From Gammaproteobacteria bacterium (GTDB lineage: Bacteria; Pseudomonadota; Gammaproteobacteria; UBA4575), in NCBI GenBank assembly GCA_965222615.1, contig CBDCUI010000007.1, positions 640,001 through 704,000 on the forward strand: DNA of 64,000 bases, given 5' to 3'. How positions within the stretch are numbered: position 1 is the stretch's first letter; each line of letters begins with the position of its first letter. Shown here one piece after another: positions 43,646 to 62,238 of this stretch. Under the pieces are notes generated by a model, which had not been told where the DNA came from, searched no databases, and saw only the letters and a list, made by a program, of their open reading frames with translations. The translations under genes were made by a program, and so were the position numbers.

Positions 43646-45046
43646 TTAGAACCACTGAACGATACCAAAAGCAAACATTTCTAGATCACCACCAACCCCA
43701 ACACCAGCAGGACTGATGCCAAAGTCATAGTGAGCATTGTTGCCGTTAGATACTTCAGAATAGGTTACACGCAGCTCTGTTCCTGCAGGCATGGTGTAGA
43801 ACAAGCCGACGTTATAGGCATCGGCATCTGTACTGTTGTCTGTGCCAGCTGCATTTCCAAGACAAACACCACTCACTCCATTGAGATCACAATCTAGGTC
43901 GTCTGCATCCATGTATGAGAAGCGGAAGTCTAGAGGGCCAGGAAAGTTGTGCTTACCTGAGATCATCCAAGCATCACGCTCTACTTCTGTTGAGCCAGCA
44001 ACACCGGTTCCACCTAAGAACCCATCACCACTAGCACAATCATCATGCTCGTATTCGAGATCTTCGTACATACCAGAAATCCAGGTAGAGTGGCCGTTAC
44101 CCCAGTCATGGATGTAACGTCCTGCAAGACGCCATGAAGAATCGTCAGAATCTTCACAACCAAAGTCAACAGCTGCCCATTCATCATGCTCTTCATATGT
44201 AACTGCAAACCAAACACTAGAGCCACCGCCACCAACGCCGGTTTCATAAGCAATACCCAAAGACCAGATACGAGGATCTAATTCTGCGGTGCCAATTGCT
44301 GTGGTCACACGGACTTCATCATTACCATTGAAGTAGTTGAAGCCTGGGTCTTGTTGTGCGCTGGTTGTAGCAATGCGTGCTGTGAATCCACCCCAGTTAG
44401 GAGACATCCACTGTACAACACCATTTTGACGTCGGTTGAAAGCATTGTTTTCAGAACCAAATCCAGATCCGAAATTGGTGAGACCACCAAAGCCGCCACC
44501 GTTATCAAAGCCAAAACCACCATTAAAGAAACGGCCGGTTCCACCACCAACGTTACCCATGATTGAGGTGTGAGAATCCGCACCTGCATCATAGAAGGGG
44601 TCTACCCATTGCGCGACCATTTCGTTGTGTGGTAACAACCAGTTTGCAAACATGACTTCACCCCAAGGGCCGGCTAAACCGATTTTACTATTACGATTAC
44701 AGAAATCGTTAAAGCCAAAGAAGCCAGAACCGACAAAACGGTTATGGAAAGTGAACTGTTCACAACGGAAAGTTGCTTTAACAGCCTGCCCAGCTACGGA
44801 TACACCCGTATCAATATCTGCTGAGAAACCAAGATTGGCCGCGTTGTTACTGATACGAGTTAAATCTCTGTCTACGCCTGGACCATAGTGGTCTTCAACG
44901 TCGACAAATTCATATGACCAGTTTTGCCATCCGTAGATAGTCCAATTTGAATTTGCGTTACCGCCACCAACACCGCCTGCGAACGATGCCAGTGGCAAGG
45001 TCGCGAGTCCAAGTGCTAGCGCAGTTCCGATAAGTTTAGTTTTCAT
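43646..45046 (-). CDS. Gram-negative porin (Porin_4-like), Gly/Asp/Cys-rich
   Basis: Signal peptide, TIYG, NRNSKIGLAGPWGEV, VQWMSPNWGGF, C-terminal FGIVQWF; strong terminator and long leader. Confidence 0.85.
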   Translation of the reverse strand: MKTKLIGTALALGLATLPLASFAGGVGGGNANSNWTIYGWQNWSYEFVDVEDHYGPGVDRDLTRISNNAANLGFSADIDTGVSVAGQAVKATFRCEQFTFHNRFVGSGFFGFNDFCNRNSKIGLAGPWGEVMFANWLLPHNEMVAQWVDPFYDAGADSHTSIMGNVGGGTGRFFNGGFGFDNGGGFGGLTNFGSGFGSENNAFNRRQNGVVQWMSPNWGGFTARIATTSAQQDPGFNYFNGNDEVRVTTAIGTAELDPRIWSLGIAYETGVGGGGSSVWFAVTYEEHDEWAAVDFGCEDSDDSSWRLAGRYIHDWGNGHSTWISGMYEDLEYEHDDCASGDGFLGGTGVAGSTEVERDAWMISGKHNFPGPLDFRFSYMDADDLDCDLNGVSGVCLGNAAGTDNSTDADAYNVGLFYTMPAGTELRVTYSEVSNGNNAHYDFGISPAGVGVGGDLEMFAFGIVQWF

Positions 45047-45297
45047 GAAGATACTCCTCTTCGTTAACTATAAATTTCAACAAGAAAAATACTCGAGTAA
45101 TTTTCCTAACAAAGAATTCACATGCTGTAGTTGCGGCCTTAGTTATTGATTAAGGCGCTTCCCTCCCTCTGCATGTTGAATCTCGATCTGAGTGAAAAAA
45201 TCAGCGTCCCTGCTAATCTTCCATTTCAAGATAAATACAACAGAAGTTGTATTTGTACGACAGGTTGCCTGTTGAACCTCGGTAAGTCAAGCCATTT

Positions 45298-50970: not shown

Positions 50971-52260
50971 TTAGCTAAGATGCGGGAAACCTGTAGATCG
51001 GTTTTGATTGAGGAAACTAACGTTTTCTGCACCCAGTGCAAATTGATTCATTGCCAACTCGGTATTGGTAATCCCGGCCAGCTGACGGACCAAGCTATGT
51101 ACGTGTTTAGGTTCAAGTTCGACCCCATTAGCATCTTCTTGCAACGTACTTGGGTTGATCTTTAATGCATCTTGGGTGCCAGTCGTGCAACCCACTACAC
51201 GATTAGTCCAGCCAACATTCTTCTTCATTAAGACCGCACTGCCTACCGCCCAATGGTCTTTGCCATTGCCACCGTTATATTTAGGTGTGCGTGCAAAGTC
51301 GCTGGTTAATACCACTAATAGACGATTTGCGATACCGAGTTGTCCGGCACGTGTCCAAATGTAGTCGACGAGGTTAGTGAAATCCGTTAAGGCTACTGCC
51401 TGTCGGGCATCGTGATCTGAGTGCGTGTCAAAACCAAAAGATTGAACCGCAGCGGAACAACACACGCCTTCGCGCATCGCATGTAAAGCCACATCGGCAT
51501 GGGTAATCATGTAATTGGTTTTACCAGTTAGATCCTTGTTATCAAAAGAGGCGGGGAGATTGTTCCCAAAATTTTCTAATACACTAGTGTTCGCTTGACT
51601 GTTTCTGAGTTCGGCAATTTTTTCCTTGGTTTTAGGTAGGTGGTTTTGCTGTAGCAGGTCTTGTGCACGTTGTAATTGTGCCTGTCTGACTAAATCAAGT
51701 GCAGTTTGTGAAAAGTAATTACCATTTCCTCTTTTGTTCGGCAAAGATACGTCTTTAATTCTGTTGGCACTGGCACGGGTATATTTAACAATGCCGCCTG
51801 CTGTTTCGGTGACAGGTCCTTGACCAAGGTACGCCAAAGGTAAGTCTTGTCCAACTACGGCACTATAAAGTCCTTCGCTAGTGGGGAAACCGGTTGCCAA
51901 TTTACCCGTAACTTGATGTCTCCTGCCCGCAGGATGTGCATTGGTGTGGCCATGGACGCCATTAATGACCAGCATGTCTTGGTAATATTTATTAAAGAAT
52001 GCGGCGTTATTAGCAAAAGGCGCATATCGTAGATTTCCAGCAACACGCGAATTATCGTTATTAGCCCAATTATTTACATCGGTGCGTTGTTTTGGATCAC
52101 AAAAACTACTGGTATCCCAGGCCCCATTTGCATGTACATTCATCACCAATAGACCGCTATGCGGATAGGCCGCTCTGACGGTATTGATATTCAAACCAAA
52201 AGGCAATAGCGAACTTGCCCCGGCATAAGACATGAGTTTTAAGAAGTCACGACGTTCCAT
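50971..52260 (-). CDS. DUF1501 family Tat-exported protein
   Basis: Twin-arginine signal ERRDFLK; GAWD, FDTH, SDFARTP..N...GKDHW motifs characteristic of DUF1501. Confidence 0.85.
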   Translation of the reverse strand: MERRDFLKLMSYAGASSLLPFGLNINTVRAAYPHSGLLVMNVHANGAWDTSSFCDPKQRTDVNNWANNDNSRVAGNLRYAPFANNAAFFNKYYQDMLVINGVHGHTNAHPAGRRHQVTGKLATGFPTSEGLYSAVVGQDLPLAYLGQGPVTETAGGIVKYTRASANRIKDVSLPNKRGNGNYFSQTALDLVRQAQLQRAQDLLQQNHLPKTKEKIAELRNSQANTSVLENFGNNLPASFDNKDLTGKTNYMITHADVALHAMREGVCCSAAVQSFGFDTHSDHDARQAVALTDFTNLVDYIWTRAGQLGIANRLLVVLTSDFARTPKYNGGNGKDHWAVGSAVLMKKNVGWTNRVVGCTTGTQDALKINPSTLQEDANGVELEPKHVHSLVRQLAGITNTELAMNQFALGAENVSFLNQNRSTGFPHLS

Positions 52261-52279
52261 GATGTAAACTCCAGTTCAT

Positions 52280-55200
52280 TTATTCGTAAAGGAATTCATA
52301 CGTACCTATGAAATAGGTAAGCATGATCATCCAAGAGCGTTTCATAAAGTTGTTATCGGTAACAGAACTACAAGGTGCAGAAGTATTATCCGACTGTGCC
52401 GCATTGCGTACTTGTTGCAACAAGTTAAAAGTACGGTCTATCTCAGTATCATTAACTGATAGATTTTTACCTAGAAATCGCGCATGTAGATGCACCAAGT
52501 TTTGACGTATCGCAGCTTCTGCATTCGCAGGTGTGTCATTAGGTGAAACACTTGGGAAGAGTAAACGTTGACCTGCATTGCGATTAAAATCATCTCTTAC
52601 CACTTCACAGGAAAGTTCCGCTCCCATGCGGTCAATCATTGCAGCCATCAAGCTACTGATTTGTGTGTTACGAGTATTTTCCCTAGTTTCAATTCTGGCA
52701 TCAAAATTGCCATACATGAGGTAGTAATTGTTATCACCTATCAACCTGGTCCAGGTTTTGCCAAGCAGCGCCGTTAATTTACGGTCCAATTGCTCAGGAG
52801 TAAGTACGCGACTCGTACCTAAGTCAGCAAGCTCGGCACGGCCTGCATTGGCTAGATCCACTGAGCCCGAACGGAACCATGGGCTGAGAACTAGCTCAGC
52901 AAGTAAATGCTTAAGGTTGTGATTATTATTTCTAAATATTTGCCCGGCCTGATTAAATACCACGGTCTGCGCGTCGTATGCAGCCTGTTGTACGGGATCT
53001 GGCTCAACCGGTGCGGCAAGTGGTTTACGACCAAACAAACCTTGGTACCAGAATTTAGCCGTACCGGAATCAAAGCGGGTATCGGCGGTCATGCGTTCGC
53101 CTAACCAGCGCAAAGAGGTGTTATTTCTAGAAGTCGGTAAACCAGTGCCGGAAAATGGATAACCTGGAGCAACCATATCTCGATACCAGATGTCTCCACT
53201 TTGATAATACTTAACTCCATTTTCATCGCGAGCATTGCTGGCGTAGTAGTAACTAATGTTGGTAAAGGTCCCGCCAATGTTTCTTCGACGATAACTACCG
53301 CCACTGTTATACCAATTTTGAAATGCTCCGGCGATGGGGTCTACGGTGTTGTGGCACACTGTACAATTAGGGTTATTTAATGTCGGATTGAGCTCATTTT
53401 TTACTGAATCCACATCGATTGCACGTGTTGCCAAGGCCTCTAGATCTACCCCTAAGAAAAGGTCAGAAGTTACGCGCGCGCGCATGCGATTGCGGTTGGT
53501 ATCTGTAGATGGCCATTTGATTAAGAAACTGGGCTGGGTCAACAATCCTGCATGCGGATAGGCACCACTCATACGACCATTCATGTTTATACCTGTGCGT
53601 GCTCGAACAAATGTCTTTGCATCTGCACCATTTGGCATAGGATCTAAAAGAGTTGCTTGATACAAGTACGCACTTTCTGGATTGACCATAGTGTAATCTG
53701 CAGTAATGACTTCAGAATAAGGCCTGTCGTTACGTACGATATGCTTTACCAACTCCAGTGGTTCATATCTAAGGGCGTCTCTTAGAACATTGCGTCGTTG
53801 AGTATCCGCTTCAATTTCTGCCAAGCGTGGGTAGTCGTCGTCCCGCAAGTTACCGATAAAGTATGCCCCAGTGACTAACAACTTATCATTCACGGTCTCA
53901 CTTACGAACTTTTCAAATTCAGGCCCATTCATCATATTGATTAAAGCCTGTCTCATTTGCGCGCGATCACCTGCAGTATTTAATTCTGCTGAGGTAGGTA
54001 GACGTCCTGCAAGCATTATGGCGGCTTTACGCATCACGTCTTGGTCAGACATCGCATTTACGCCAGTGTAAAATGCCGAGTTATCTACTGGCTCAGTTTG
54101 ATCACCGTTTTCTTTAATAATGTCGCGGAACATATAAGCTGCAATATCCTTGCCGCATTGAACATCACATACACCTGGCACAGGCATTTGCGCAGTAAGA
54201 TAAGTAGCTAACGTAGCCTCATCTGCACAACGGTTTGCTTCACAGGGTTTAACGTTAATATCGCGTGGCGCAATTACTGCAACACCGTCTGCTCCATGAC
54301 AACCCGCACATGAAATTGCGTAATTCGAACCAGGAATGGCATTGTTATATAAGAACATGCCACGGTCTGGGTTCGGTGTGGTATCGATATTTACATTTAC
54401 GGAAACCGATTTACTTATATCGATGCCGTTAATGGCCTGACAATTTAACGTAAAGCTAGTAGATGCCTGTAGGTTATTAATGCTTACGCCATTAGCGTTA
54501 GATACCGCCTTGGTACCCGTCCATGCTGGGTTCGCGGGGTTCGCACTGGCAGTACAAGTACTTATATCTTTAGATTGCCAAGATAAGGTCGTCGCCATGC
54601 CCTGATCAATCGAAGTCGGTGATGCTGTAAAAGTTAAATCCGGCATAGCAGGGACAACTGTGACGGCAACGGTTGAGCTGGAAGAACCGCCTTTACCGGT
54701 ACAAGCCAGCGTGAAGCTCGTGTCTTGAATCAAGTTGGTAATGCTGACACCGTTTTGGTTATTCACTGCACGGTTACCAGACCATCCACCACTAGCTTGA
54801 CAACTATCTGCATCCGTAGAAGTCCAGGTTAAAACTGTATTACCGTTATATGGAATATTGGCCATTGGGTTTGCACTTAGGCTTACAGTAGGTGCATTAG
54901 GTTTTGCCGCTACAGTGACGGCAACAGACTTTACTTGTGAATTAATATTGCCGATAAAGCAGGTCAACATAAATGTGTTGGTGCCTGAATCAACCAGGTT
55001 GCTTAATGTTTTCGAACCCGAAGCCGTAACATCACCTTGCCACTGTCCTGCAGCCATTGCACCTGAGGCCACACATTTTTCAGCATTAGAAGTCCAAGAA
55101 AGTGCAGTCGAACCACCGTATTCCACTGAAGTTGGAGTAGCCGTGAATTGACTAATAACAGGCTGCACGTCGTCATCCATGTTAATTACTGTAACATCCG

Positions 55201-57112
55201 ATGCATTTAGCCCTTGGTATTCGTTGTCAGCACTCATTGCTGGATCGGTCACAATCATATAGCTAATCGGACCATCGACCAGGTCATCGTTTTGTCCGGT
55301 TATGGTGACAGATTGCGGAGTGTTCCAATTATCGACCGTGAAATTAACCGAGTTAGGATTAACCGTTCCCTCGCTTGTATCACTACTGCGTAAACCAATG
55401 GTGACATTTGCAGTAGGTTTTGCACCTAAAACAACCGTGAAACTTGCAGTTTGCCCAGCCTCGCTCGTGTTTAGGCCAGAGCTTGGGTTTACATTAATTG
55501 TTCTAGGAGTTGCTGGCACAACACTCACTTCTATAGATTTACTTACATCAACACCATTAATGCCTTTACAAGCCAAGGTAAAGGTGGTTGTAGCTTGTAG
55601 ATTAGAAATTTTTTCACCACCAGCATTTGAAACGGCTTTGGCACCCGTCCAAGCAGAATTTGCTGGGTTTGCGCTGGCAGAGCAAGAACTAATATCTTTA
55701 GATTGCCACGACAAGGTCGTTGCCATGCCCTGTTCCACTGAAGTCGGCGCAGCAGTAAAGGTCAATTCTGGTTTTGCGGATACCACGGTAACGGTAACCG
55801 TAGAAGAAGAACTACCACCTTTACCGCTACAAGTCAGCGTGAAGCTTGTATCTTTAATAAGTTGAGTGATGCGTACACCGTTTTGGTTATTTACTGCACG
55901 GTTACCCAACCATCCACCGCTGGCTTCACAGCTATCCGCATTCGTAGAAGTCCAGGTTAAAACGGTAGCGCCGTTATATTCAATATTAGCCATTGGATCG
56001 GCTTTTAGGCTCACGGTAGGTGCGTTGGGTTTCGCTGCTACCGTAACCGCTACTGATTTTACTTCCGAATTAATATTGCCGATTGAACAGCTCAGCATAA
56101 AGTTGTTTACGCCTGCACTGATGAGATTGTTAAGTACTTTTGAACCCGAAGCCGCGATGACGCCCTGCCATTGGCCATCCGCTGTAGATCCAGAGGCTAG
56201 ACATTTTTCTGCATTTGACATCCATGAAAGTGTCGCACTAGCACCATATTCAACAGCAGTTGGATTGGCGCTGAATTGATTGATAATCGGTTGCACGTCG
56301 TTATCGGTATTCACTACTGCAACATCTGATGCCTCTAAATTTTGATAACTTGCATCCTGGCTGACTGCCGCATCGGTGATGATCATATAGTTGATTGGAC
56401 CATCTATGACCGCGTCATCTTGACCAATTACCGTGACGGTTTGTGGGGTGTCCCAATTGTCGATGGTGAAATTAACCGCATTCGGACTGACCGTTCCCTC
56501 GGTCGTGTCACTACTGCGTAAACCAATGCTGACGTCTGCAGTCGGTTTTGAAGCTAAAACCACCGTGAAACTTGCAGTTTGACCAGCTTCACTAGTACTT
56601 AATCCTGAAGTTGGGTTTACATTGATAGCACCAGGTGTAGCTACATCATTGTCGGTATTCGTTGCACTTACATCGCTAGCATCCAACCCATTGTAATTAA
56701 TATCCATGCTTATGGCTGCGGCGGTAACAATGGTATAAGCAACATTGCCATCGATCGCGCCATCGTCTATTCCAGTAACCGTAACGGTTTGCGCTTGACT
56801 CCAATTGGTACTATCAAAACTTAAAGAAGTAGGTGACACCATGCCTTCACTGCTGTCACTACTGCTTAAGGTTATAGAAACTTCTTCACTTGGTTGTGTC
56901 ACCAGCACCACACTAAATGCAGCCATGTCTCCGTTTTCTGACGTGACCAGTCCAGTAGAAGGAGTTACTTGAATTTCCGGTGTACTAGGAATGGGATTAA
57001 CAACTTCATCATCGTCATTGCTGTCACCATCAAATAACGAGTCCCCACCGCATGCAGTTAAAAAAACTGTAGATAGTAATAAAAGACCAAACCAACGTAC
57101 CAAACAACTCAT
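52280..57112 (-). CDS. Giant lipoprotein: Calx-beta-like and Ig-like repeats + cytochrome c domain + DUF1588/DUF1592-like region
   Basis: Lipobox LTAC; repeated beta-sandwich domains; CAGCH (54296-54310) and CTVCH (53351-53365); ADYTMVN, HAGLLT, NR.RAR...FLG.D, C..CH..DP segments typical of DUF1588/1592-type proteins. Confidence 0.75.
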   Translation of the reverse strand: MSCLVRWFGLLLLSTVFLTACGGDSLFDGDSNDDDEVVNPIPSTPEIQVTPSTGLVTSENGDMAAFSVVLVTQPSEEVSITLSSSDSSEGMVSPTSLSFDSTNWSQAQTVTVTGIDDGAIDGNVAYTIVTAAAISMDINYNGLDASDVSATNTDNDVATPGAINVNPTSGLSTSEAGQTASFTVVLASKPTADVSIGLRSSDTTEGTVSPNAVNFTIDNWDTPQTVTVIGQDDAVIDGPINYMIITDAAVSQDASYQNLEASDVAVVNTDNDVQPIINQFSANPTAVEYGASATLSWMSNAEKCLASGSTADGQWQGVIAASGSKVLNNLISAGVNNFMLSCSIGNINSEVKSVAVTVAAKPNAPTVSLKADPMANIEYNGATVLTWTSTNADSCEASGGWLGNRAVNNQNGVRITQLIKDTSFTLTCSGKGGSSSSTVTVTVVSAKPELTFTAAPTSVEQGMATTLSWQSKDISSCSASANPANSAWTGAKAVSNAGGEKISNLQATTTFTLACKGINGVDVSKSIEVSVVPATPRTINVNPSSGLNTSEAGQTASFTVVLGAKPTANVTIGLRSSDTSEGTVNPNSVNFTVDNWNTPQSVTITGQNDDLVDGPISYMIVTDPAMSADNEYQGLNASDVTVINMDDDVQPVISQFTATPTSVEYGGSTALSWTSNAEKCVASGAMAAGQWQGDVTASGSKTLSNLVDSGTNTFMLTCFIGNINSQVKSVAVTVAAKPNAPTVSLSANPMANIPYNGNTVLTWTSTDADSCQASGGWSGNRAVNNQNGVSITNLIQDTSFTLACTGKGGSSSSTVAVTVVPAMPDLTFTASPTSIDQGMATTLSWQSKDISTCTASANPANPAWTGTKAVSNANGVSINNLQASTSFTLNCQAINGIDISKSVSVNVNIDTTPNPDRGMFLYNNAIPGSNYAISCAGCHGADGVAVIAPRDINVKPCEANRCADEATLATYLTAQMPVPGVCDVQCGKDIAAYMFRDIIKENGDQTEPVDNSAFYTGVNAMSDQDVMRKAAIMLAGRLPTSAELNTAGDRAQMRQALINMMNGPEFEKFVSETVNDKLLVTGAYFIGNLRDDDYPRLAEIEADTQRRNVLRDALRYEPLELVKHIVRNDRPYSEVITADYTMVNPESAYLYQATLLDPMPNGADAKTFVRARTGINMNGRMSGAYPHAGLLTQPSFLIKWPSTDTNRNRMRARVTSDLFLGVDLEALATRAIDVDSVKNELNPTLNNPNCTVCHNTVDPIAGAFQNWYNSGGSYRRRNIGGTFTNISYYYASNARDENGVKYYQSGDIWYRDMVAPGYPFSGTGLPTSRNNTSLRWLGERMTADTRFDSGTAKFWYQGLFGRKPLAAPVEPDPVQQAAYDAQTVVFNQAGQIFRNNNHNLKHLLAELVLSPWFRSGSVDLANAGRAELADLGTSRVLTPEQLDRKLTALLGKTWTRLIGDNNYYLMYGNFDARIETRENTRNTQISSLMAAMIDRMGAELSCEVVRDDFNRNAGQRLLFPSVSPNDTPANAEAAIRQNLVHLHARFLGKNLSVNDTEIDRTFNLLQQVRNAAQSDNTSAPCSSVTDNNFMKRSWMIMLTYFIGTYEFLYE
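54385..56626 (-). repeat. Intragenic tandem duplication, 1128-bp period (376 aa)
   Basis: INVNP.SGL.TSEAGQTASFTVVL begins at 56626 and 55498; the following four domains are collinear and highly similar. Confidence 0.92.
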
Positions 57113-57377
57113 AGGTCACAACTCCATTTGCACGTGAATGCTTGCTCAACTCCTTTAGAGCCTATTCACATTATTTATTCCATGAAAAATATTTTGCTAA
57201 GTACAAGCCAAATAGTTTTTTCTCACACAATATTGCTGTGATTAAACATGAGTTAAACCACAGCTTTTGAATCCAACATAACGAACTTTGAATTAATCAA
57301 ATAATTTGTGAGCCTGCTACAAGATAAAAGGTCTTATTGAATGGACAAAAGGTATAAATATTTTCAAATTTTTGTAA

Positions 57378-57795
57378 TGTGAAGGCTCGCACAAAATGAA
57401 ATATATTCAATGTAATTAGTGAGTTATAAGAAACTGTGTAAATCGACACAGTTGTATTTTTAAGTTTGAAAAATGTATGCGTAAAGAAATGATTGGACGA
57501 TTTTTACTGGAAAAGAACAAAGTGCTAAGAGCACTATTTAGCAACGATAATCAGTAGGCAATTCCTGATGAAAGGAACACTGAAACATGGTCGAACTAGT
57601 ATAGTTTGATTTGCGAGCCTAAACATTGAAATTAAATTCATATCACAACGAGCCTTTTAAATCCTAGGCACATAAGTAGATACATCTATTTGTTTAGTCA
57701 GAAATTTAAACCCATTCAGTGCGTTATTAGGCCAATTTTTTTTAATAATACAGAATAATTTGTTCATACCAAGCAAGTGTGTGCGGCAACTCACA
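57378..57795. promoter_or_regulatory. CRP-like boxes in the divergent promoter region
   Basis: TGTGA-AGGCTC-GCACA (57378-57393), TGTGT-AAATCG-ACACA (57435-57450), TGTGC-GGCAAC-TCACA (57780-57795). Confidence 0.55.
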
Positions 57796-57878: not shown

Positions 57879-58379
57879 ATGAAATCACGTCTACTTAGCA
57901 AACTGATACTAATAATGTTGGTGGTTTTACCATTTGGCGTTTCTGCAATTTCAGTAGGTGACACCGTTCCATCATTTAAAGCAAGGACAATCGATGGAAG
58001 TAAAACCGTGGCACTTGAAGATTATAGGGGCAAAGTTGTGCTAGTAGATTTTTGGGCTTCTTGGTGCCCTCCCTGCCTCAAGTCGTTACCTAAATATAAT
58101 CAGTTACGCAGAGAAATTGGTACAGCTGATTTTGAAATCGTGGCAATTAACGTTGATGAAAACACCGACGAGGCTAGGAAATTCTTACAAAAACATCCAG
58201 TAAGTTATCCTGTTGCTAAAGATCCGAAAGGTATTTTACCTGGTGTGTTTGGAGTTAAGGCCATGCCTACTTCGTATTTAATCGACAAAAACGGTGTTGT
58301 GAAATACGTACATGCTGCGTTTAAAGATGGCGATATCGAAAAAATTAAGCACGAAATTGAAAAGTTAATCGCTAACTAA
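57879..58379 (+). CDS. TlpA/ResA family thiol-disulfide oxidoreductase
   Basis: DFWASWCPPC active site, cis-Pro AMPTSYLID, N-terminal signal/anchor from ATG 57879. Confidence 0.92.
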   Translation: MKSRLLSKLILIMLVVLPFGVSAISVGDTVPSFKARTIDGSKTVALEDYRGKVVLVDFWASWCPPCLKSLPKYNQLRREIGTADFEIVAINVDENTDEARKFLQKHPVSYPVAKDPKGILPGVFGVKAMPTSYLIDKNGVVKYVHAAFKDGDIEKIKHEIEKLIAN

Positions 58380-58392
58380 ATCTGATCGCACA

Positions 58393-58608
58393 GTGAAAAA
58401 CATAAGTACTTTAATACTACTACTAAGTGTTTTTCTACTTAGTGCCTGCACATCGGTAAGCCCTTGGGAGCGTGGCATTCTTGCTAAGCCAGAAATGGCG
58501 TGGGAACCAGATGTATTACAGGGAAAGTTACAAGAACATGTCTACTTCAGCAAAGAAGGCTCTAATGGGGGATATGGCGCCGGAGGCGGTGGTTGCGGTT
58601 GTAATTAA
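58393..58608 (+). CDS. DUF4266 lipoprotein
   Basis: Lipobox LSAC, V.PWERG.LAKPEM, H.YFSKE, C-terminal GGGGCGCN. Confidence 0.9.
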   Translation: MKNISTLILLLSVFLLSACTSVSPWERGILAKPEMAWEPDVLQGKLQEHVYFSKEGSNGGYGAGGGGCGCN

Positions 58609-58651
58609 ACATACTTAGATCAAATTTAAAAAGAAGTTAGAGAACTTAAAA

Positions 58652-59863
58652 ATGGGAAAAAAACAAGGCGGCCCTAGCCCCACTTTGGCCGCATTAACTT
58701 CTGCCGCTATGGCGCTTCCGGGGATTAGTTCATCTGTGAAAGCAGGCGTCGTTGCCAATCAACCTAAGCTGTCGTTGCAATATACGCGTTATGATGAAGA
58801 CAGTATTCCAAGTGGAGATGCCGATGTCGTGGTGGGGGATCGTGATCGTTACGACATCGATGTTGCGCTAATAGAGTTTTTATATCCCATCAATGCACAG
58901 TGGCAGATCACCGGTGGGTTCGCCTATGATGATATGAGTGGTTCTTCACCTTGGTATGTAAGACCGACGGATACTGCAAATGCAACAGGAGATCCATTGG
59001 TTGTGATGAGTGGTGCGACTATCGATGATACGCGTTACGATTTCAGCCTCAAAGCGGACTACTTTGGCGAAAAATTTACCGTCTCACCAAGTGTCGGGTA
59101 TTCAACCGAAAAAGATTATGAAGCCATTAGTGGTGGTGTCGAGGTGGAATATGAATTTCCCAACAAGGCCACTTCCATACGTGGAGGAGTATCGGTTTCG
59201 TTTGATGAAATCGATCCTACCCAACTTACTGGGCAAACCAGAATCAGTAGCGACGATAAAGAAAATTACGCAATTTTTGGTGGCCTGACACAGGTCATCA
59301 ACAAATACACCGTCATACAGACGACATTGGGAGTATCAGTTTTTGATGGGTTTTTATCTGACCCGTATAAGCAGGTATGGGTAGCCGGTAGTGTATTACC
59401 GGATAGTCGACCGGGTGATCGGACGCAATATACCTGGGCAACTCGCTTACGCCGCTATTCAGAATTATTGGGTGCAGCACTGCATGTAGATTATCGTTTT
59501 TATTACGATGATTGGGATGTGCGATCGCATACCTTGGATCTAGGTATACATAAAGTTACCGACAGTGGTTGGGCCTTCGATTCTTCCATTCGTTACTACT
59601 CTCAGACACAGGCCGATTTCTATGAACCATTTTATCGACAAACGCGTGCCGATGGAGAATATTCCAGTGATTATCGATTATCGCCATACGGCTCAATTGC
59701 ATTTCGATTAGGCTTGTCTGAGACCATCGATAATTGGACTGTAAAAATTGCTGCCGAACGTTACGTCAGTGACAAATCTTACTCAGTGCAAAAAGTCGAT
59801 GTTGAAAATCCTGCCTTATTGGACTACACCTTATTTTCATTTGGTGTTGACTATAGCTTTTAA
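58652..59863 (+). CDS. DUF3570 outer-membrane beta-barrel protein
   Basis: Signal LAALTSAAMALPG, E.DY, G.LSDPYK, DSRP..R, YRFYYDDW.V.SHT, RYYSQ..ADFY, SSDYRLS; C-terminal DYSF; position after DUF4266. Confidence 0.88.
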   Translation: MGKKQGGPSPTLAALTSAAMALPGISSSVKAGVVANQPKLSLQYTRYDEDSIPSGDADVVVGDRDRYDIDVALIEFLYPINAQWQITGGFAYDDMSGSSPWYVRPTDTANATGDPLVVMSGATIDDTRYDFSLKADYFGEKFTVSPSVGYSTEKDYEAISGGVEVEYEFPNKATSIRGGVSVSFDEIDPTQLTGQTRISSDDKENYAIFGGLTQVINKYTVIQTTLGVSVFDGFLSDPYKQVWVAGSVLPDSRPGDRTQYTWATRLRRYSELLGAALHVDYRFYYDDWDVRSHTLDLGIHKVTDSGWAFDSSIRYYSQTQADFYEPFYRQTRADGEYSSDYRLSPYGSIAFRLGLSETIDNWTVKIAAERYVSDKSYSVQKVDVENPALLDYTLFSFGVDYSF

Positions 59864-59923
59864 CATCCTGTTCTGGATAAAAATTTAGTACACTAAGTTT
59901 TTCGTTTAAACGGGTTTTCTTGT

Positions 59924-60856
59924 TTGCAACTGTTTAGCTTTCCTTTTAAAGCAATGGGTTCGCCCTGTGAGCTAAAACTCTATGCCGGTCATAAAGACAC
60001 AGCAGACCAAATTGCGGCACAGACTATTGCCGAGATTGATCGCTTAGAAAAAAAATATTCTCGTTATCGCGATGATAGTGTCACCAGCGCCATTAACCAA
60101 AGTGCAGGTGATAAGGATGGTGTCGTCGTTGATAAAGAGACTGCACGCTTACTCGATTATGCACAAGTAGGGTATGAACAAAGTGATGGCTTATTTGATA
60201 TCACGTCGGGAATTTTGCGCAGGGTATGGAATTTTCGATCTAATGAACTTCCTATGCAAGCAGATATTGAATCGATTTTACCTCTAATCGGTTGGAATAA
60301 AATTAGCTGGGATTCGCCTCGAATTTGTTTACCACAACAAGGTATGGAATTAGATTTTGGCGGTTATGTAAAAGAATATGCTGCTGATGTTGCGGCTAAT
60401 ACCTGCCAACATGCTGGAATTACTAATGGCCTGGTCAATTTGGGTGGTGATATTTGTGTTATCGGCCCACATCCAAATGGCAACGCTTGGAAAGTAGGTG
60501 TGCGACATCCGCGCAAGCCGAATGAACCTATGTCTTTTGTATTTTTAACTAGTGGCGGCCTGGCTAGCAGTGGTGATTATGAACGCTATATGGTCGTCAA
60601 CGGTGTCCGTTATGCCCATATTCTAAATCCAAAAACCGGCTGGCCGGTTAAGAGTCTTGCCAGTACCAGTGTTTATGCACCGCAATGTGTGGTTGCCGGC
60701 ACTTCATCAACGATCGCCATGTTGAAGGGTGATATTGATGGTGTACAGTGGTTGGAAGAGCTAGGCTTACCTTACATCTGTATGAATCAGGACGAGGAAA
60801 TCTTTGGTACACTCAAACGAGTCGAAAATTTAAATGCCATTTCCAGTTTCACATGA
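59924..60856 (+). CDS. apbE: FAD:protein FMN transferase (ApbE)
   Basis: AMG, FDIT, LDFGGYVKEYAAD, VNLGGD, ASSGDYER, HILNPKTG.P. Confidence 0.93.
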   Translation: MQLFSFPFKAMGSPCELKLYAGHKDTADQIAAQTIAEIDRLEKKYSRYRDDSVTSAINQSAGDKDGVVVDKETARLLDYAQVGYEQSDGLFDITSGILRRVWNFRSNELPMQADIESILPLIGWNKISWDSPRICLPQQGMELDFGGYVKEYAADVAANTCQHAGITNGLVNLGGDICVIGPHPNGNAWKVGVRHPRKPNEPMSFVFLTSGGLASSGDYERYMVVNGVRYAHILNPKTGWPVKSLASTSVYAPQCVVAGTSSTIAMLKGDIDGVQWLEELGLPYICMNQDEEIFGTLKRVENLNAISSFT

Positions 60857-60903: not shown

Positions 60904-60927
60904 AATTTGTGATTTGAATCACAATTT
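60904..60927. promoter_or_regulatory. Consensus CRP-family binding site
   Basis: AATT-TGTGA-TTTGAA-TCACA-ATTT, a 10/10 match to TGTGA-N6-TCACA with AT-rich flanks. Confidence 0.75.
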
Positions 60928-61014
60928 CGTGATAAATCGTTAAATAAATCATACAAATACAGTCAGTTATTGAAACAAATCTACCACTGGCGATAAAAAA
61001 AGGGTACTATTTCG

Positions 61015-61086
61015 TTGCCACATTGTTCCAACTCCAGTGGCAAACTATGAAAGCCTTGTGGAAGGATCCATGGGGCTTTCTTTATT
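61015..61086 (+). ncRNA. Candidate small regulatory RNA (about 70 nt)
   Basis: -10-like TACTAT at 61005-61010; hairpin TTGCCAC/GTGGCAA with a 15-nt anti-SD loop; 14-bp terminator stem with an AGGA loop followed by TTTATT. Confidence 0.5.
61049..61086 (+). terminator. Rho-independent terminator (plus strand)
   Basis: GAAAGCCTTGTGGA-AGGA-TCCATGGGGCTTTC-TTTATT; three G-U pairs form only on the plus strand. Confidence 0.75.
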
Positions 61087-61092
61087 ACGTTT

Positions 61093-62238
61093 TCATAAAT
61101 GTAAAAACTCCTCTATTTGATCCGCATTTTCTTCAGCATCTTTTTCACCTAGCTGAATCAGACGATCTAAATAGTCTGGTTGAAACATAAGTAGTGACAG
61201 TGAATCTGGACTTTTTGTATCCCGTGTACCAAAGCCGCGTGTAAAGTAACGAAACGGTTGCGGTAGACGAATTTCATATTGACTGGCAAGTTTTCCTAAA
61301 TCTTCACTGGGACGAAGTATCAATAGTTCTATTTTGTTTAATTCTTCACGTGCTTGTTCATCTAGTTCTTCATATAGCTCATTAATGCGATTCATGTTCG
61401 CGGCATCATGATCAAGCAAATCTAAAAATACCGAATCTAATAAAATGCCAATAACCTGTGCAAGAGGTGCATACTCGCTAATTACAGATTCGTCCGGTGT
61501 AACTTGTCCACCACGAAAGCGTGTTGAAATGGCTAAGATACGTTTCGCGCCTAAATGCATGGCAGGTGAAAGTGGTGCAATCGATCGTATACCTCCATCG
61601 CCGTGCCAACCGTCGTCAAGTTTTACCGCCGGAAAAACTAGTGGCAATGCAGCCGATGCCATTACGTGATCGACAGTTATCACTGCTGTTTCACTATGTC
61701 TTCTAGGTCTTTGCCAATGTTCATAGCCTTGACCTTGTACCCAAGTAATGGATTTACCCGTACCATAGTTTGTACTGGTGATACCTAACACACGTAAACG
61801 TCCGCGGTCGATATTTTCTTGAATACCAAGAATAGGTTCAGTTGCTGCAGATAGTAATTTTCTTACTAAAAATTGACGTAGTGGATCGCTATCTAAAAGG
61901 CTTCGCTTACGAGGACCAATATCACTACCACCTAAAATAAACCCAAATCCCCAACGAAAAAAGTTTGCTAAGAAATAACCACTGTCGGTACGAAAGACTT
62001 TGTCGGTAGTTAATTCTAGCCATAGCTCAGTAAGGTGTTCGACGGCTTCACAAAATGTACCTTGATATGCGGCAAGATGCGCGGCATTAACTGCTCCCGC
62101 AGAAACACCGGTAATAATGGGCGGTTGAAAACTGTCATATTTTTTACATATATAGCGTAATACTCCGACCTGATATGCTGCACGTGCACCACCACCAGTC
62201 ATGGCTAGTCCCAGATCATTGTTATTTGCATCTAGCAT
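61093..62238 (-). CDS. Patatin-like phospholipase
   Basis: GGGARAAYQVG, GVSAG nucleophile, ASAALP..FP, DGG. Confidence 0.92.
   Translation of the reverse strand: MLDANNNDLGLAMTGGGARAAYQVGVLRYICKKYDSFQPPIITGVSAGAVNAAHLAAYQGTFCEAVEHLTELWLELTTDKVFRTDSGYFLANFFRWGFGFILGGSDIGPRKRSLLDSDPLRQFLVRKLLSAATEPILGIQENIDRGRLRVLGITSTNYGTGKSITWVQGQGYEHWQRPRRHSETAVITVDHVMASAALPLVFPAVKLDDGWHGDGGIRSIAPLSPAMHLGAKRILAISTRFRGGQVTPDESVISEYAPLAQVIGILLDSVFLDLLDHDAANMNRINELYEELDEQAREELNKIELLILRPSEDLGKLASQYEIRLPQPFRYFTRGFGTRDTKSPDSLSLLMFQPDYLDRLIQLGEKDAEENADQIEEFLHL

Follow-up and report, generated by a model that had tools for sequence, protein, structure and literature searches.

The window analyzed here is a stretch of 64,000 nucleotides (nt) from a 3.1-Mb gammaproteobacterial genome (GTDB lineage UBA4575; assembly GCA_965222615.1, contig CBDCUI010000007.1, positions 640,001 to 704,000). 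Near its end, apbE (ending at 60856) and a convergent patatin gene (ending at 61093) enclose a gap that holds a candidate gene for a small RNA (sRNA). An earlier reading of the same DNA, called the original prediction below, had placed in this region a CRP box, a TACTAT hexamer, a hairpin, a terminator and complements of two ribosome-binding sites (RBS), and all of these motifs sit at the positions given for them. The segment from 61017 to about 61085 is, with considerable confidence, an independently transcribed, trans-acting, base-pairing sRNA that would repress the mRNAs of surface proteins. The locus comprises the following features.

57879..60856, plus strand: tlpA-DUF4266-DUF3570-apbE flavinylation cluster, the upstream host locus
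60908-60923, no strand assigned: perfect CRP box, TGTGA-N6-TCACA, centered at -101.5 from a start at 61017
60950..60971, plus strand: conserved, putatively protein-binding blocks, CATAnnAATAC at -67..-57 and the consensus CCGTTTATT at -54..-46
within 60981..60992, plus strand: invariant CTACCAC at -36..-30, a non-consensus -35 position (18/18 promoters)
61003..61010, plus strand: extended -10, with G at -14 and TAnnAT at -12..-7 (TACTAT, 61005-61010)
61017..61085, plus strand: sRNA gene of about 70 nt with predicted ends, consisting of hairpin 1, a short linker, a terminator hairpin and a U-rich tail
61017..61041, plus strand: hairpin 1, with a 5-bp stem and a 15-nt loop (25/25 nt invariant)
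61022-61036, plus strand: loop proper of hairpin 1
61021..61038, plus strand: seed, made up of an anti-AUG (CAU), the complement of an 8-nt spacer and an anti-Shine-Dalgarno (anti-SD) CUCC, in the register GGAG-N8-AUG
61049..61086, plus strand: intrinsic terminator (hairpin 61049-61080), with a 14-bp stem and the loop hexamer A(U/A)GGAU (20/20)
61093..62238, minus strand: patatin gene, the convergent downstream neighbor

Distribution, fold and strand of the sRNA

Comparisons were made across 56 genomes of the family, which in the genomes compared is also the order; counts given gene by gene (such as 18 promoters or 19 targets) refer to readable or assembled copies. A first DNA search recovered a conserved version of the gap from 8 of 40 relatives, and a covariance model built from nine copies of the sRNA gave strong matches (E < 1e-15) in 20 of the 56 genomes, which belong to five genera and carry one copy each; three further weak matches, in genera g8 and g3 (E 0.007-0.02), lie outside these 20. 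No homologue was returned by the model from 149 genomes of other families of the class, and the range of the sRNA is one clade of an uncultured order, whose carriers are bacteria without a cultured model in the data seen. The first 26 nt of the RNA are invariant in 20/20 genomes, and the 15-nt loop, whose conservation in relatives had been named as a decisive check, is likewise invariant in every carrier. Upstream lies apbE at 18/18 loci with sequence there and downstream lies patatin at 20/20. An exact 17-mer scan of the species collection yielded 62 loci, 17 of them full homologues whose labels denote uncultured metagenome-assembled genomes and, in nearly every case, Gammaproteobacteria or 'Thiotrichales'; the remaining exact loci, by inspection, lack the sRNA stem and terminator. 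All eight metagenome matches are full homologues. The discrete RNA of roughly 70 nt with an anti-SD loop that was originally proposed is therefore backed by conservation in 20/56 family genomes, as a predicted transcript. Behind apbE in five sRNA-less genomes we found no element like the sRNA, and the patatin query was without a match there; in genus g8 (five genomes), a search for a co-varied sRNA complementary to the genus's own target start gave only coding or self matches.

On the plus strand, the segment 61017-61086 has a folding z-score of -4.0, with none of 200 shuffles equally stable, and the minus strand folds more weakly (z = -2.5). In the accessibility calculation, opening the seed loop costs about 0.7 kcal/mol. 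The sRNA stems are paired in 342 of 342 cells across the homologues, and in five terminator pairs just one of the two sides changes (GU/GC, UG/UA, AU/GU, CG/UG), changes which, together with the fold scores, favor the plus strand. Since the minus-strand frame opposite the sRNA is 3-18 codons long and unconserved beyond two residues, and the sole plus-strand ATG inside the sRNA is not conserved across homologues, neither strand contains a conserved reading frame. The U-rich tail is short and interrupted, and the patatin gene probably uses the same terminator. The genome encodes hfq, csrA and crp, the CRP scoring above the NCBIfam cut-off, and the sRNA may act with Hfq. A search of Rfam 15, a check proposed at the outset, found no family match (best E 1.8, far under the gathering thresholds; CyaR, Spot 42, FnrS and CsrB/RsmZ included), nor did any of five homologous loci give one, and the sRNA is uncatalogued in that database.

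The loop hexamer A(U/A)GGAU of the terminator (61062-61067) is invariant in 20/20 copies, beyond the needs of termination, and resembles a CsrA site. Multiple GGA motifs in loops are the hallmark of CsrB/RsmZ-type CsrA sponges; the plus strand of the sRNA has one.

Promoter of the sRNA

The invariance of the sRNA begins at 61017, 7 nt past the -10, and marks 61017 as the likely transcription start; the start near 61016 given originally was approximately right. All 18 readable promoters have G-14, T-12, A-11, A-8 and T-7, and positions -10 and -9 are free to vary. The initial remark that no clear -35 is visible holds for a consensus -35; the position itself is occupied by the invariant CTACCAC. 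A scan of the gap for consensus sigma-70 promoters called none because the -35 is non-consensus. The CRP box, one of 16 perfect boxes in the genome, is perfect in 16 of the 18 promoters and has one mismatch in the other two, the spacer being free; its center falls between -100.5 and -102.5 in 17 promoters and at -81.5 in one. In that one (G046, L121), a 20-bp deletion shifts the box from about -101.5 to -81.5 with the helical phase kept (about two turns). With the box conserved in 18 promoters and a true CRP encoded, the originally suggested link to CRP is upheld as predicted binding, and the sRNA would belong to the CRP regulon. FNR was considered as the upstream regulator and rejected: half of an FNR box is TTGAT, and the box reads TGTGA. 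Further downstream, positions -33..-25 have the family consensus CCACTTATC, which is similar to an AlgR/LytTR half-site and degenerate in this genome, and the CCGTTTATT block, at a distance of 21 bp, may be its upstream LytTR counterpart.

The sRNA gene thus has a promoter and an intrinsic terminator of its own, both recognized by their conservation. It could instead be released by processing from the 3' end of the tlpA-DUF4266-DUF3570-apbE mRNA, with the upstream elements serving another purpose. Because no plus-strand terminator was detected between the apbE stop and the sRNA terminator, and apbE is always upstream, read-through is likely. As the source of the sRNA, processing is nevertheless a very improbable explanation: the -10, G-14, the -36 block and the CRP box lie at fixed distances from 61017 in 18 promoters, apart from the single deletion that moves the CRP box by 20 bp, and the gap has no other gene start for these elements to serve.

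Complementary sites at genes for surface proteins

The 14-mer complement GAGTTGGAACAATG occurs outside the sRNA gene in 19 of the 20 sRNA-bearing genomes versus 0 of the 36 other family genomes. Among 22 such sites fetched from relatives, 18 coincide with the start of a single gene; of the remainder, two fall in leaders, one within a coding region and one in a short upstream open reading frame (ORF). The gene is monocistronic, stands behind slt and encodes a lipoprotein of 733-759 amino acids (aa) with a lipobox, Ig-like repeats and two CxxCH-type motifs, one at either end. It shares about 50% identity with the N-terminal portion of a 1610-aa protein encoded in the window. Its single-sequence structure prediction was uninformative (predicted local distance difference test, pLDDT, 35), with all Atlas matches below 0.8. 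The duplex predicted with the sRNA has 18 contiguous pairs over the SD and AUG (-28.9 kcal/mol) in 19/19 readable genomes, and reaches -17 to -19 once accessibility is counted. Positions -20 to +2 are identical in 18 of the 19; the exception, G046, has one A>G change that retains a G-U pair. Conservation is 1.0 at this start, against 0.67 just upstream and 0.62-0.65 at the starts of metY, tlpA and DUF3570. Homologues in nine sRNA-less genomes lack the site (duplex -7.1 to -8.9). In the present genome (G000:C9:1116662; L235:1503) the gene has an apparent frameshift that stems from misassembly, since the contigs of two runs have an extra base at the frameshift site; these contigs do not display the missing start.

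A second widely retained site belongs to g1944 (C8:1078560), which encodes a 976-aa lipoprotein with HZS-alpha and beta-propeller domains and three CxxCH motifs. It could form 8-12 pairs with the sRNA, through GGAGTTGG before the AUG in 16/18 sRNA-bearing genomes and GGAGCTGG in the other two; none of eight orthologues from sRNA-less genomes has a site at its start. The third gene, g0480 (G000:C7:419669-420034), encodes a 121-aa secreted protein without a Pfam match and is distributed exactly as the sRNA is (20/56). Its site lies in the leader, about 55 nt before the AUG, off the RBS and near the leader 5' end, with a duplex of -17 or below in 13/20, a location that argues against a mere preferred SD context. 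Further top sites in this genome are those of pilY1 g0592 (17 contiguous pairs), g0759 (whose mismatches in G000 and G002 both retain G-U pairs), g0033/g0034 with paralogues, g1033, pilY1 g0979, a gene for a 40-aa membrane protein, and a short ORF in the g2290 leader. The seed is conserved and accessible, then, and has conserved complementary sites in unlinked mRNAs; the gene, its promoter and its sites are conserved and are distributed together.

Two of these loci have features of their own. The g2290 leader (G000:C9:345494 to 345146; L165) has the seed site and the short upstream ORF at the start of its 270 nt; this ORF has 19 codons here and eight in G006, the leader itself being conserved, and the operon has three genes and is cytochrome-containing. 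The 40-aa membrane protein gene (G000:C9:620173, minus strand; L201), which was not called, combines a CRP box free of mismatches with an AlgR-type repeat and an RBS that matches the seed; its orthologue in G048 retains this RBS.

Of the 256 four-base extensions of GGAG at the predicted starts in this genome, TTGG shows the strongest over-representation (12 seen versus 1.05 expected, p 1.5e-9; next best p 0.01), four of the 12 matches forming two paralogue pairs. Contigs C2, C4 and C6 of the assembly repeat regions of C8/C9 at about 70-75% protein identity or more; they are duplicates or strain variants and inflate target counts.

Several observations weigh against the proposed sRNA and its regulon. 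The 20 carrier genomes are kin, so that contrasts of presence and absence come close to one evolutionary event. Neither the sRNA stems (20 copies; 5/5 pairs of hairpin 1 never vary) nor the sRNA-target duplexes show two-sided covariation. With no stem pair varying on both sides, a shuffle control of covariation is uninformative; for the duplexes, the absence follows from a seed that never varies, and the target changes preserve G-U pairs only. The 3044 gene starts come from a simple in-house gene caller. When the seed was shuffled, 11 of 60 versions had as many starts at or below -19 kcal/mol as the real seed, a control that therefore lacked significance, and G020, which is sRNA-less, has a -27.8 match at an unrelated start. 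The start of the main target is unreadable in this genome, its 5' end falling in the gap between contigs C7 and C9, and the nine sRNA-less homologues occupy another gene context and may be paralogues. A porin start is also invariant (17 nt in 5/5 genomes) without matching this sRNA. Retention is incomplete elsewhere: the g0480 leader site is lost or weak in 7/20, the g0759 site is present in 2/7 syntenic orthologues, that of pilY1 g0592 in 3/4 scored and that of g0979 in 2/3, and the g1033 site is not retained in the two checked. Finally, the AlgR-like half-sites of the sRNA promoter score well in genus g7 and poorly in G000, G001, G006, G009, G014 and G002.

A contrary reading is that there is no trans-acting RNA, GGAGTTGGA being a favored start context or protein site and the element a terminator plus the minus-strand RBS and AUG of a short ORF. 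The minus strand does read GGAG-N8-ATG followed by an 18-codon open frame here, and both the shuffled-seed control and the invariant porin start fit that account. We consider it exceedingly unlikely, as the frame loses its conservation after two residues, the promoter and the G-U pattern indicate the plus strand, a site is retained in a leader off the RBS, and orthologous starts are without the site where the sRNA is missing.

The preferred explanation, a repressing sRNA, would work as follows. Transcribed from its own sigma-70-type promoter with a distal CRP site, the RNA would expose an open 15-nt loop that pairs in vivo with GGAG-N8-AUG, occluding the RBS and start codon and blocking translation. 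Its core targets would be the 740-aa two-heme protein with an Ig-like stalk, the 976-aa HZS-alpha/beta-propeller lipoprotein and the g0480 leader, to which PilY1 adhesins and other lipoproteins would be added in particular lineages. At leader sites the effect could be activation or sponging. Indeed, the sRNA might chiefly activate or stabilize leaders (g0480, g2290), or be sponged by them, or bind CsrA through A(U/A)GGAU. The g0480 site lies just past the predicted transcription start, and two genomes have a similar site ahead of the short upstream ORF that lies 270 nt before g2290; in addition, the terminator loop does not vary and csrA is encoded. As the principal function this is improbable, since a single GGA loop is a poor sponge next to CsrB/RsmZ-type RNAs. 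Moreover, the strongest and best-conserved site spans the SD and AUG, where pairing blocks ribosome loading (PMC8383071), and leader or CsrA modes could coexist with repression.

The element is probably, then, a previously uncatalogued off-switch for cell-surface proteins. Its regulon would be unusually legible, in that the seed, promoter, targets and a probable two-component system can be read from the sequence, and regulation of the targets is testable in E. coli reporters without culturing the organism.

Candidate regulators, related systems and the neighboring operon

Alignment of g0480 promoters revealed a direct repeat with a 21-bp period, ending 31 nt before a TATAAT. An AraC-type reading of this repeat, for which a literature search found nothing, was given up once the motif proved to match AlgR/LytTR sites. 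With a matrix trained exclusively on 18 relatives, this genome showed 20 intergenic repeat pairs at period 21 and between 0 and 3 at any other period in the range 11-32. Repeats precede the 1610-aa gene (57323-57353, the best), g1944, g1033, g0480, the 40-aa gene, g2290 and a prepilin gene, and 14 of 15 relatives carry the repeat, in reverse orientation, in the main target promoter; of the other matches, only some lie 31 nt from a good -10. Between the 24 repeat-bearing and the 31 seed-bearing genes, three are shared (Fisher p 0.002), one of which supplied training orthologues. The motif resembles the AlgR core site of Pseudomonas aeruginosa, given as CCGTTCGTC in PMC4064291 and PMC4787818; LytTR repeats are described, in PMC6193735, as spaced by 12 bp and lying about 10 bp upstream of the -35. 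The sole LytTR protein of the genome sits in an algZ-algR-hemC-hemD-like locus, the name AlgR resting on domain content and gene order, with no named model above cut-off. Direct repeats of 9-10 bp at a 21-bp period upstream of promoters and a LytTR regulator thus occur together, and the targets concerned would form an AlgR/LytTR regulon.

This repeat regulon of 20-odd sites comprises surface cytochrome lipoproteins, pilus genes and secreted proteins without an assigned role, and also exists in family members without the sRNA: g1944 orthologues have the repeat in 11 of 18 sRNA-bearing and in 7/7 scored sRNA-less genomes. The family split, with the same genes and the same AlgR-type repeats and with different starts, looks as if control by RNA had been added to a transcriptional regulon of earlier origin. 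CRP boxes that are perfect or have one mismatch lie upstream of g0033, g1152 and g0480, of the genes for the 1610-aa and 40-aa proteins, and of the g0975-g0979 pilus operon; a box with at most one mismatch precedes 1.6% of all starts. Several members of a family of ~75-aa proteins with repeated DRR motifs (G000:C7:713616-713843 and paralogues) have CRP boxes as well; this family has 1-11 matches per genome in 28 of the 56 genomes and no Pfam or NCBIfam match.

AlgZ(FimS)-AlgR may act on the sRNA promoter and probably acts on several targets, which, with CRP likewise acting on both, would create feed-forward loops. The sRNA promoter has family-consensus half-sites at -54 and -33, and the latter, overlapping the -35 position, would be repressor geometry. 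That AlgR represses the sRNA is our lead guess and a tentative one; that it activates the sRNA is unlikely, and that it does not control the sRNA at all is close to an even prospect. A doubtful but more complete scheme is a surface programme run by CRP and AlgZ-AlgR, in which AlgR turns on the stalked cytochromes, PilY1 and lipoproteins and shuts off the sRNA; with AlgR off, CRP would drive the sRNA, silencing the same mRNAs through 16-22 bp duplexes, with tuning by leader sites and the CsrA loop. If this is true, one RNA switch ties surface attachment to extracellular electron transfer, and the case illustrates how a trans-acting sRNA recruits new targets as their starts converge on one 17-nt sequence. 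The targets single out surface cytochrome lipoproteins and PilY1 adhesins, which are uncharacterized, as one co-regulated module.

Among known systems, the closest counterpart is CyaR (RyeE), which is CRP- and Hfq-dependent and has its seed over the SD region of the ompX mRNA (PMC11795201). The likeness lies in a short CRP-linked sRNA with a seed on the SD of an outer-membrane or surface protein mRNA. The sRNA described here differs in having its CRP box at -101.5, with conserved sites between box and promoter, in forming 16-18 contiguous pairs through the AUG, in targeting cytochrome lipoproteins and PilY1, and in its confinement to one clade of an uncultured order. It appears to be a real feature and to represent a new CyaR-like family of trans-acting sRNAs. 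In RsaE, LhrC, the RNAIII hairpins and OxyS, an unpaired C-rich loop recognizes G-rich RBSs and represses translation (PMC8383071); the open C-rich loop here likewise complements RBSs, with no sequence match to those RNAs, and it also complements the spacer and start codon, narrowing recognition to GGAGTTGG starts. Repression of envelope or lipoprotein synthesis would be shared with MicL and OmrA-OmrB, but MicL is sigma-E dependent and arises from within cutC, whereas the sRNA here has a sigma-70-type -10 and a CRP box.

In P. aeruginosa, AlgR activates fimU-pilVWXY1Y2E, and it is tied to RsmY/RsmZ and not to a base-pairing sRNA in the accessible parts of PMC4064291 and PMC4787818, no search having been aimed at the latter. 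The present family resembles it in the motif, in possessing an algZ-algR-hemC-hemD-like locus and in having repeats at pilus and surface genes; it differs in strict 21-bp direct repeats, as in other LytTR regulators (PMC6193735), placed before cytochrome lipoprotein genes. CRP of E. coli controls an sRNA and many of its targets in a feed-forward arrangement (bioRxiv 10.64898/2025.12.22.696124), to which the perfect or near-perfect CRP boxes before several targets here correspond, with the difference that a second regulator appears to be involved. The main texts of the open literature, in searches not aimed at AlgR-controlled base-pairing RNAs, contained no description of this sRNA, and nothing related was found in the literature on sRNAs and extracellular electron transfer or on DUF1592, DUF1588 and DUF1501.

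The original prediction had a different regulon in mind, in which the sRNA coordinates the two halves of the local locus by pairing with both genes of the operon on the far side of tlpA. The relevant features are these.

50971..52260, minus strand: DUF1501 gene, partner of the 1610-aa gene
52267..52275, minus strand: 9-nt match at the DUF1501 RBS, requiring the sRNA stem to open (-8.2 with accessibility; not conserved)
52280..57112, minus strand: gene for the 1610-aa lipoprotein, with lipobox, Ig-like repeats, two CxxCH and DUF1592/DUF1588, a paralogue of the main target
57119..57126, minus strand: RBS site of the 1610-aa gene, with an 8-nt match to the seed (duplex -15.7; -9.5 with accessibility)
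57147..57153, minus strand: second leader match of the 1610-aa gene, CAACTCC (-8.2 with accessibility)
57323..57353, minus strand: AlgR/LytTR-type direct repeat of 21-bp period upstream of the 1610-aa gene, the top score in the genome
57378..57393, no strand assigned: CRP-like box with one mismatch, upstream of the 1610-aa gene

The complementarities themselves are exact: CAACTCCA (61029-61036) to the RBS of the 1610-aa gene, AACTCCAGT (61030-61038) to that of DUF1501, and CAACTCC to the second leader site. The label of a heme-lipoprotein operon suits the 1610-aa protein, DUF1501 being only its partner gene. By raw duplex energy the 1610-aa site ranks 27-37 and the DUF1501 site 8-11 among the 3044 starts, within the top 1.3%. 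Compared with GGAG starts alone, a check named in the original prediction, the two outrank most of them, at places 8 and 24 of 544. The warning that anti-SD seeds match by chance was well placed, TGGAGTTG occurring 119 times and ACTGGAGTT 25 times in the genome, and the neighbor matches alone are unexceptional. With accessibility, computed for 450 pre-selected starts, the two sites rank 39 (-9.5) and 61 (-8.2), against -17 to -19 for the main target. In 8/8 relatives examined metY is followed directly by tlpA, the operon being missing at the locus; DUF1501 is present in 3/56 genomes, and in G049, the one other sRNA-bearing genome with the operon, its site is down to six pairs. An operon missing at this locus in relatives and weak, unconserved sites cannot explain the invariant seed, and the proposal that the sRNA mainly coordinates its own locus is highly unlikely.

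In favor of the 1610-aa gene are its paralogy to the main target and a promoter with CRP-like and AlgR-type sites. Its 1724-aa homologue in G049 has a strong site (-25.3 kcal/mol) and a start nearly identical to that of the main target, which suggests that the 8-nt match in the window is a weakened copy of a family site. The gene resembles a member of the regulon whose site has weakened, and the two neighboring genes are at most weak, secondary targets. Separately, G002 (L033:6731-7033) has a 27-aa DUF1501 remnant between metY and tlpA, which suggests that the operon was once present at the locus in another genus and then lost.

The porin gene at 43646-45046 has no Pfam match. Its start region (45047-45063), the 17 nt identical in 5/5 genomes and without a match to the sRNA, may be where a different regulator acts. 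As an ApbE-DUF3570-thioredoxin-DUF4266 flavinylation cluster, a type already described in PMC8238504, the host locus is unremarkable. Unlike a target locus, it has tlpA, DUF3570 and apbE ranking beyond 1100 of 3044 and DUF4266 outside the top 60; a second apbE/tlpA/DUF4266/DUF3570 cluster in the genome includes the target g1944. A one-mismatch CRP-like box lies at 57780-57795, about 100 nt before tlpA, and the host operon may be under CRP control too.
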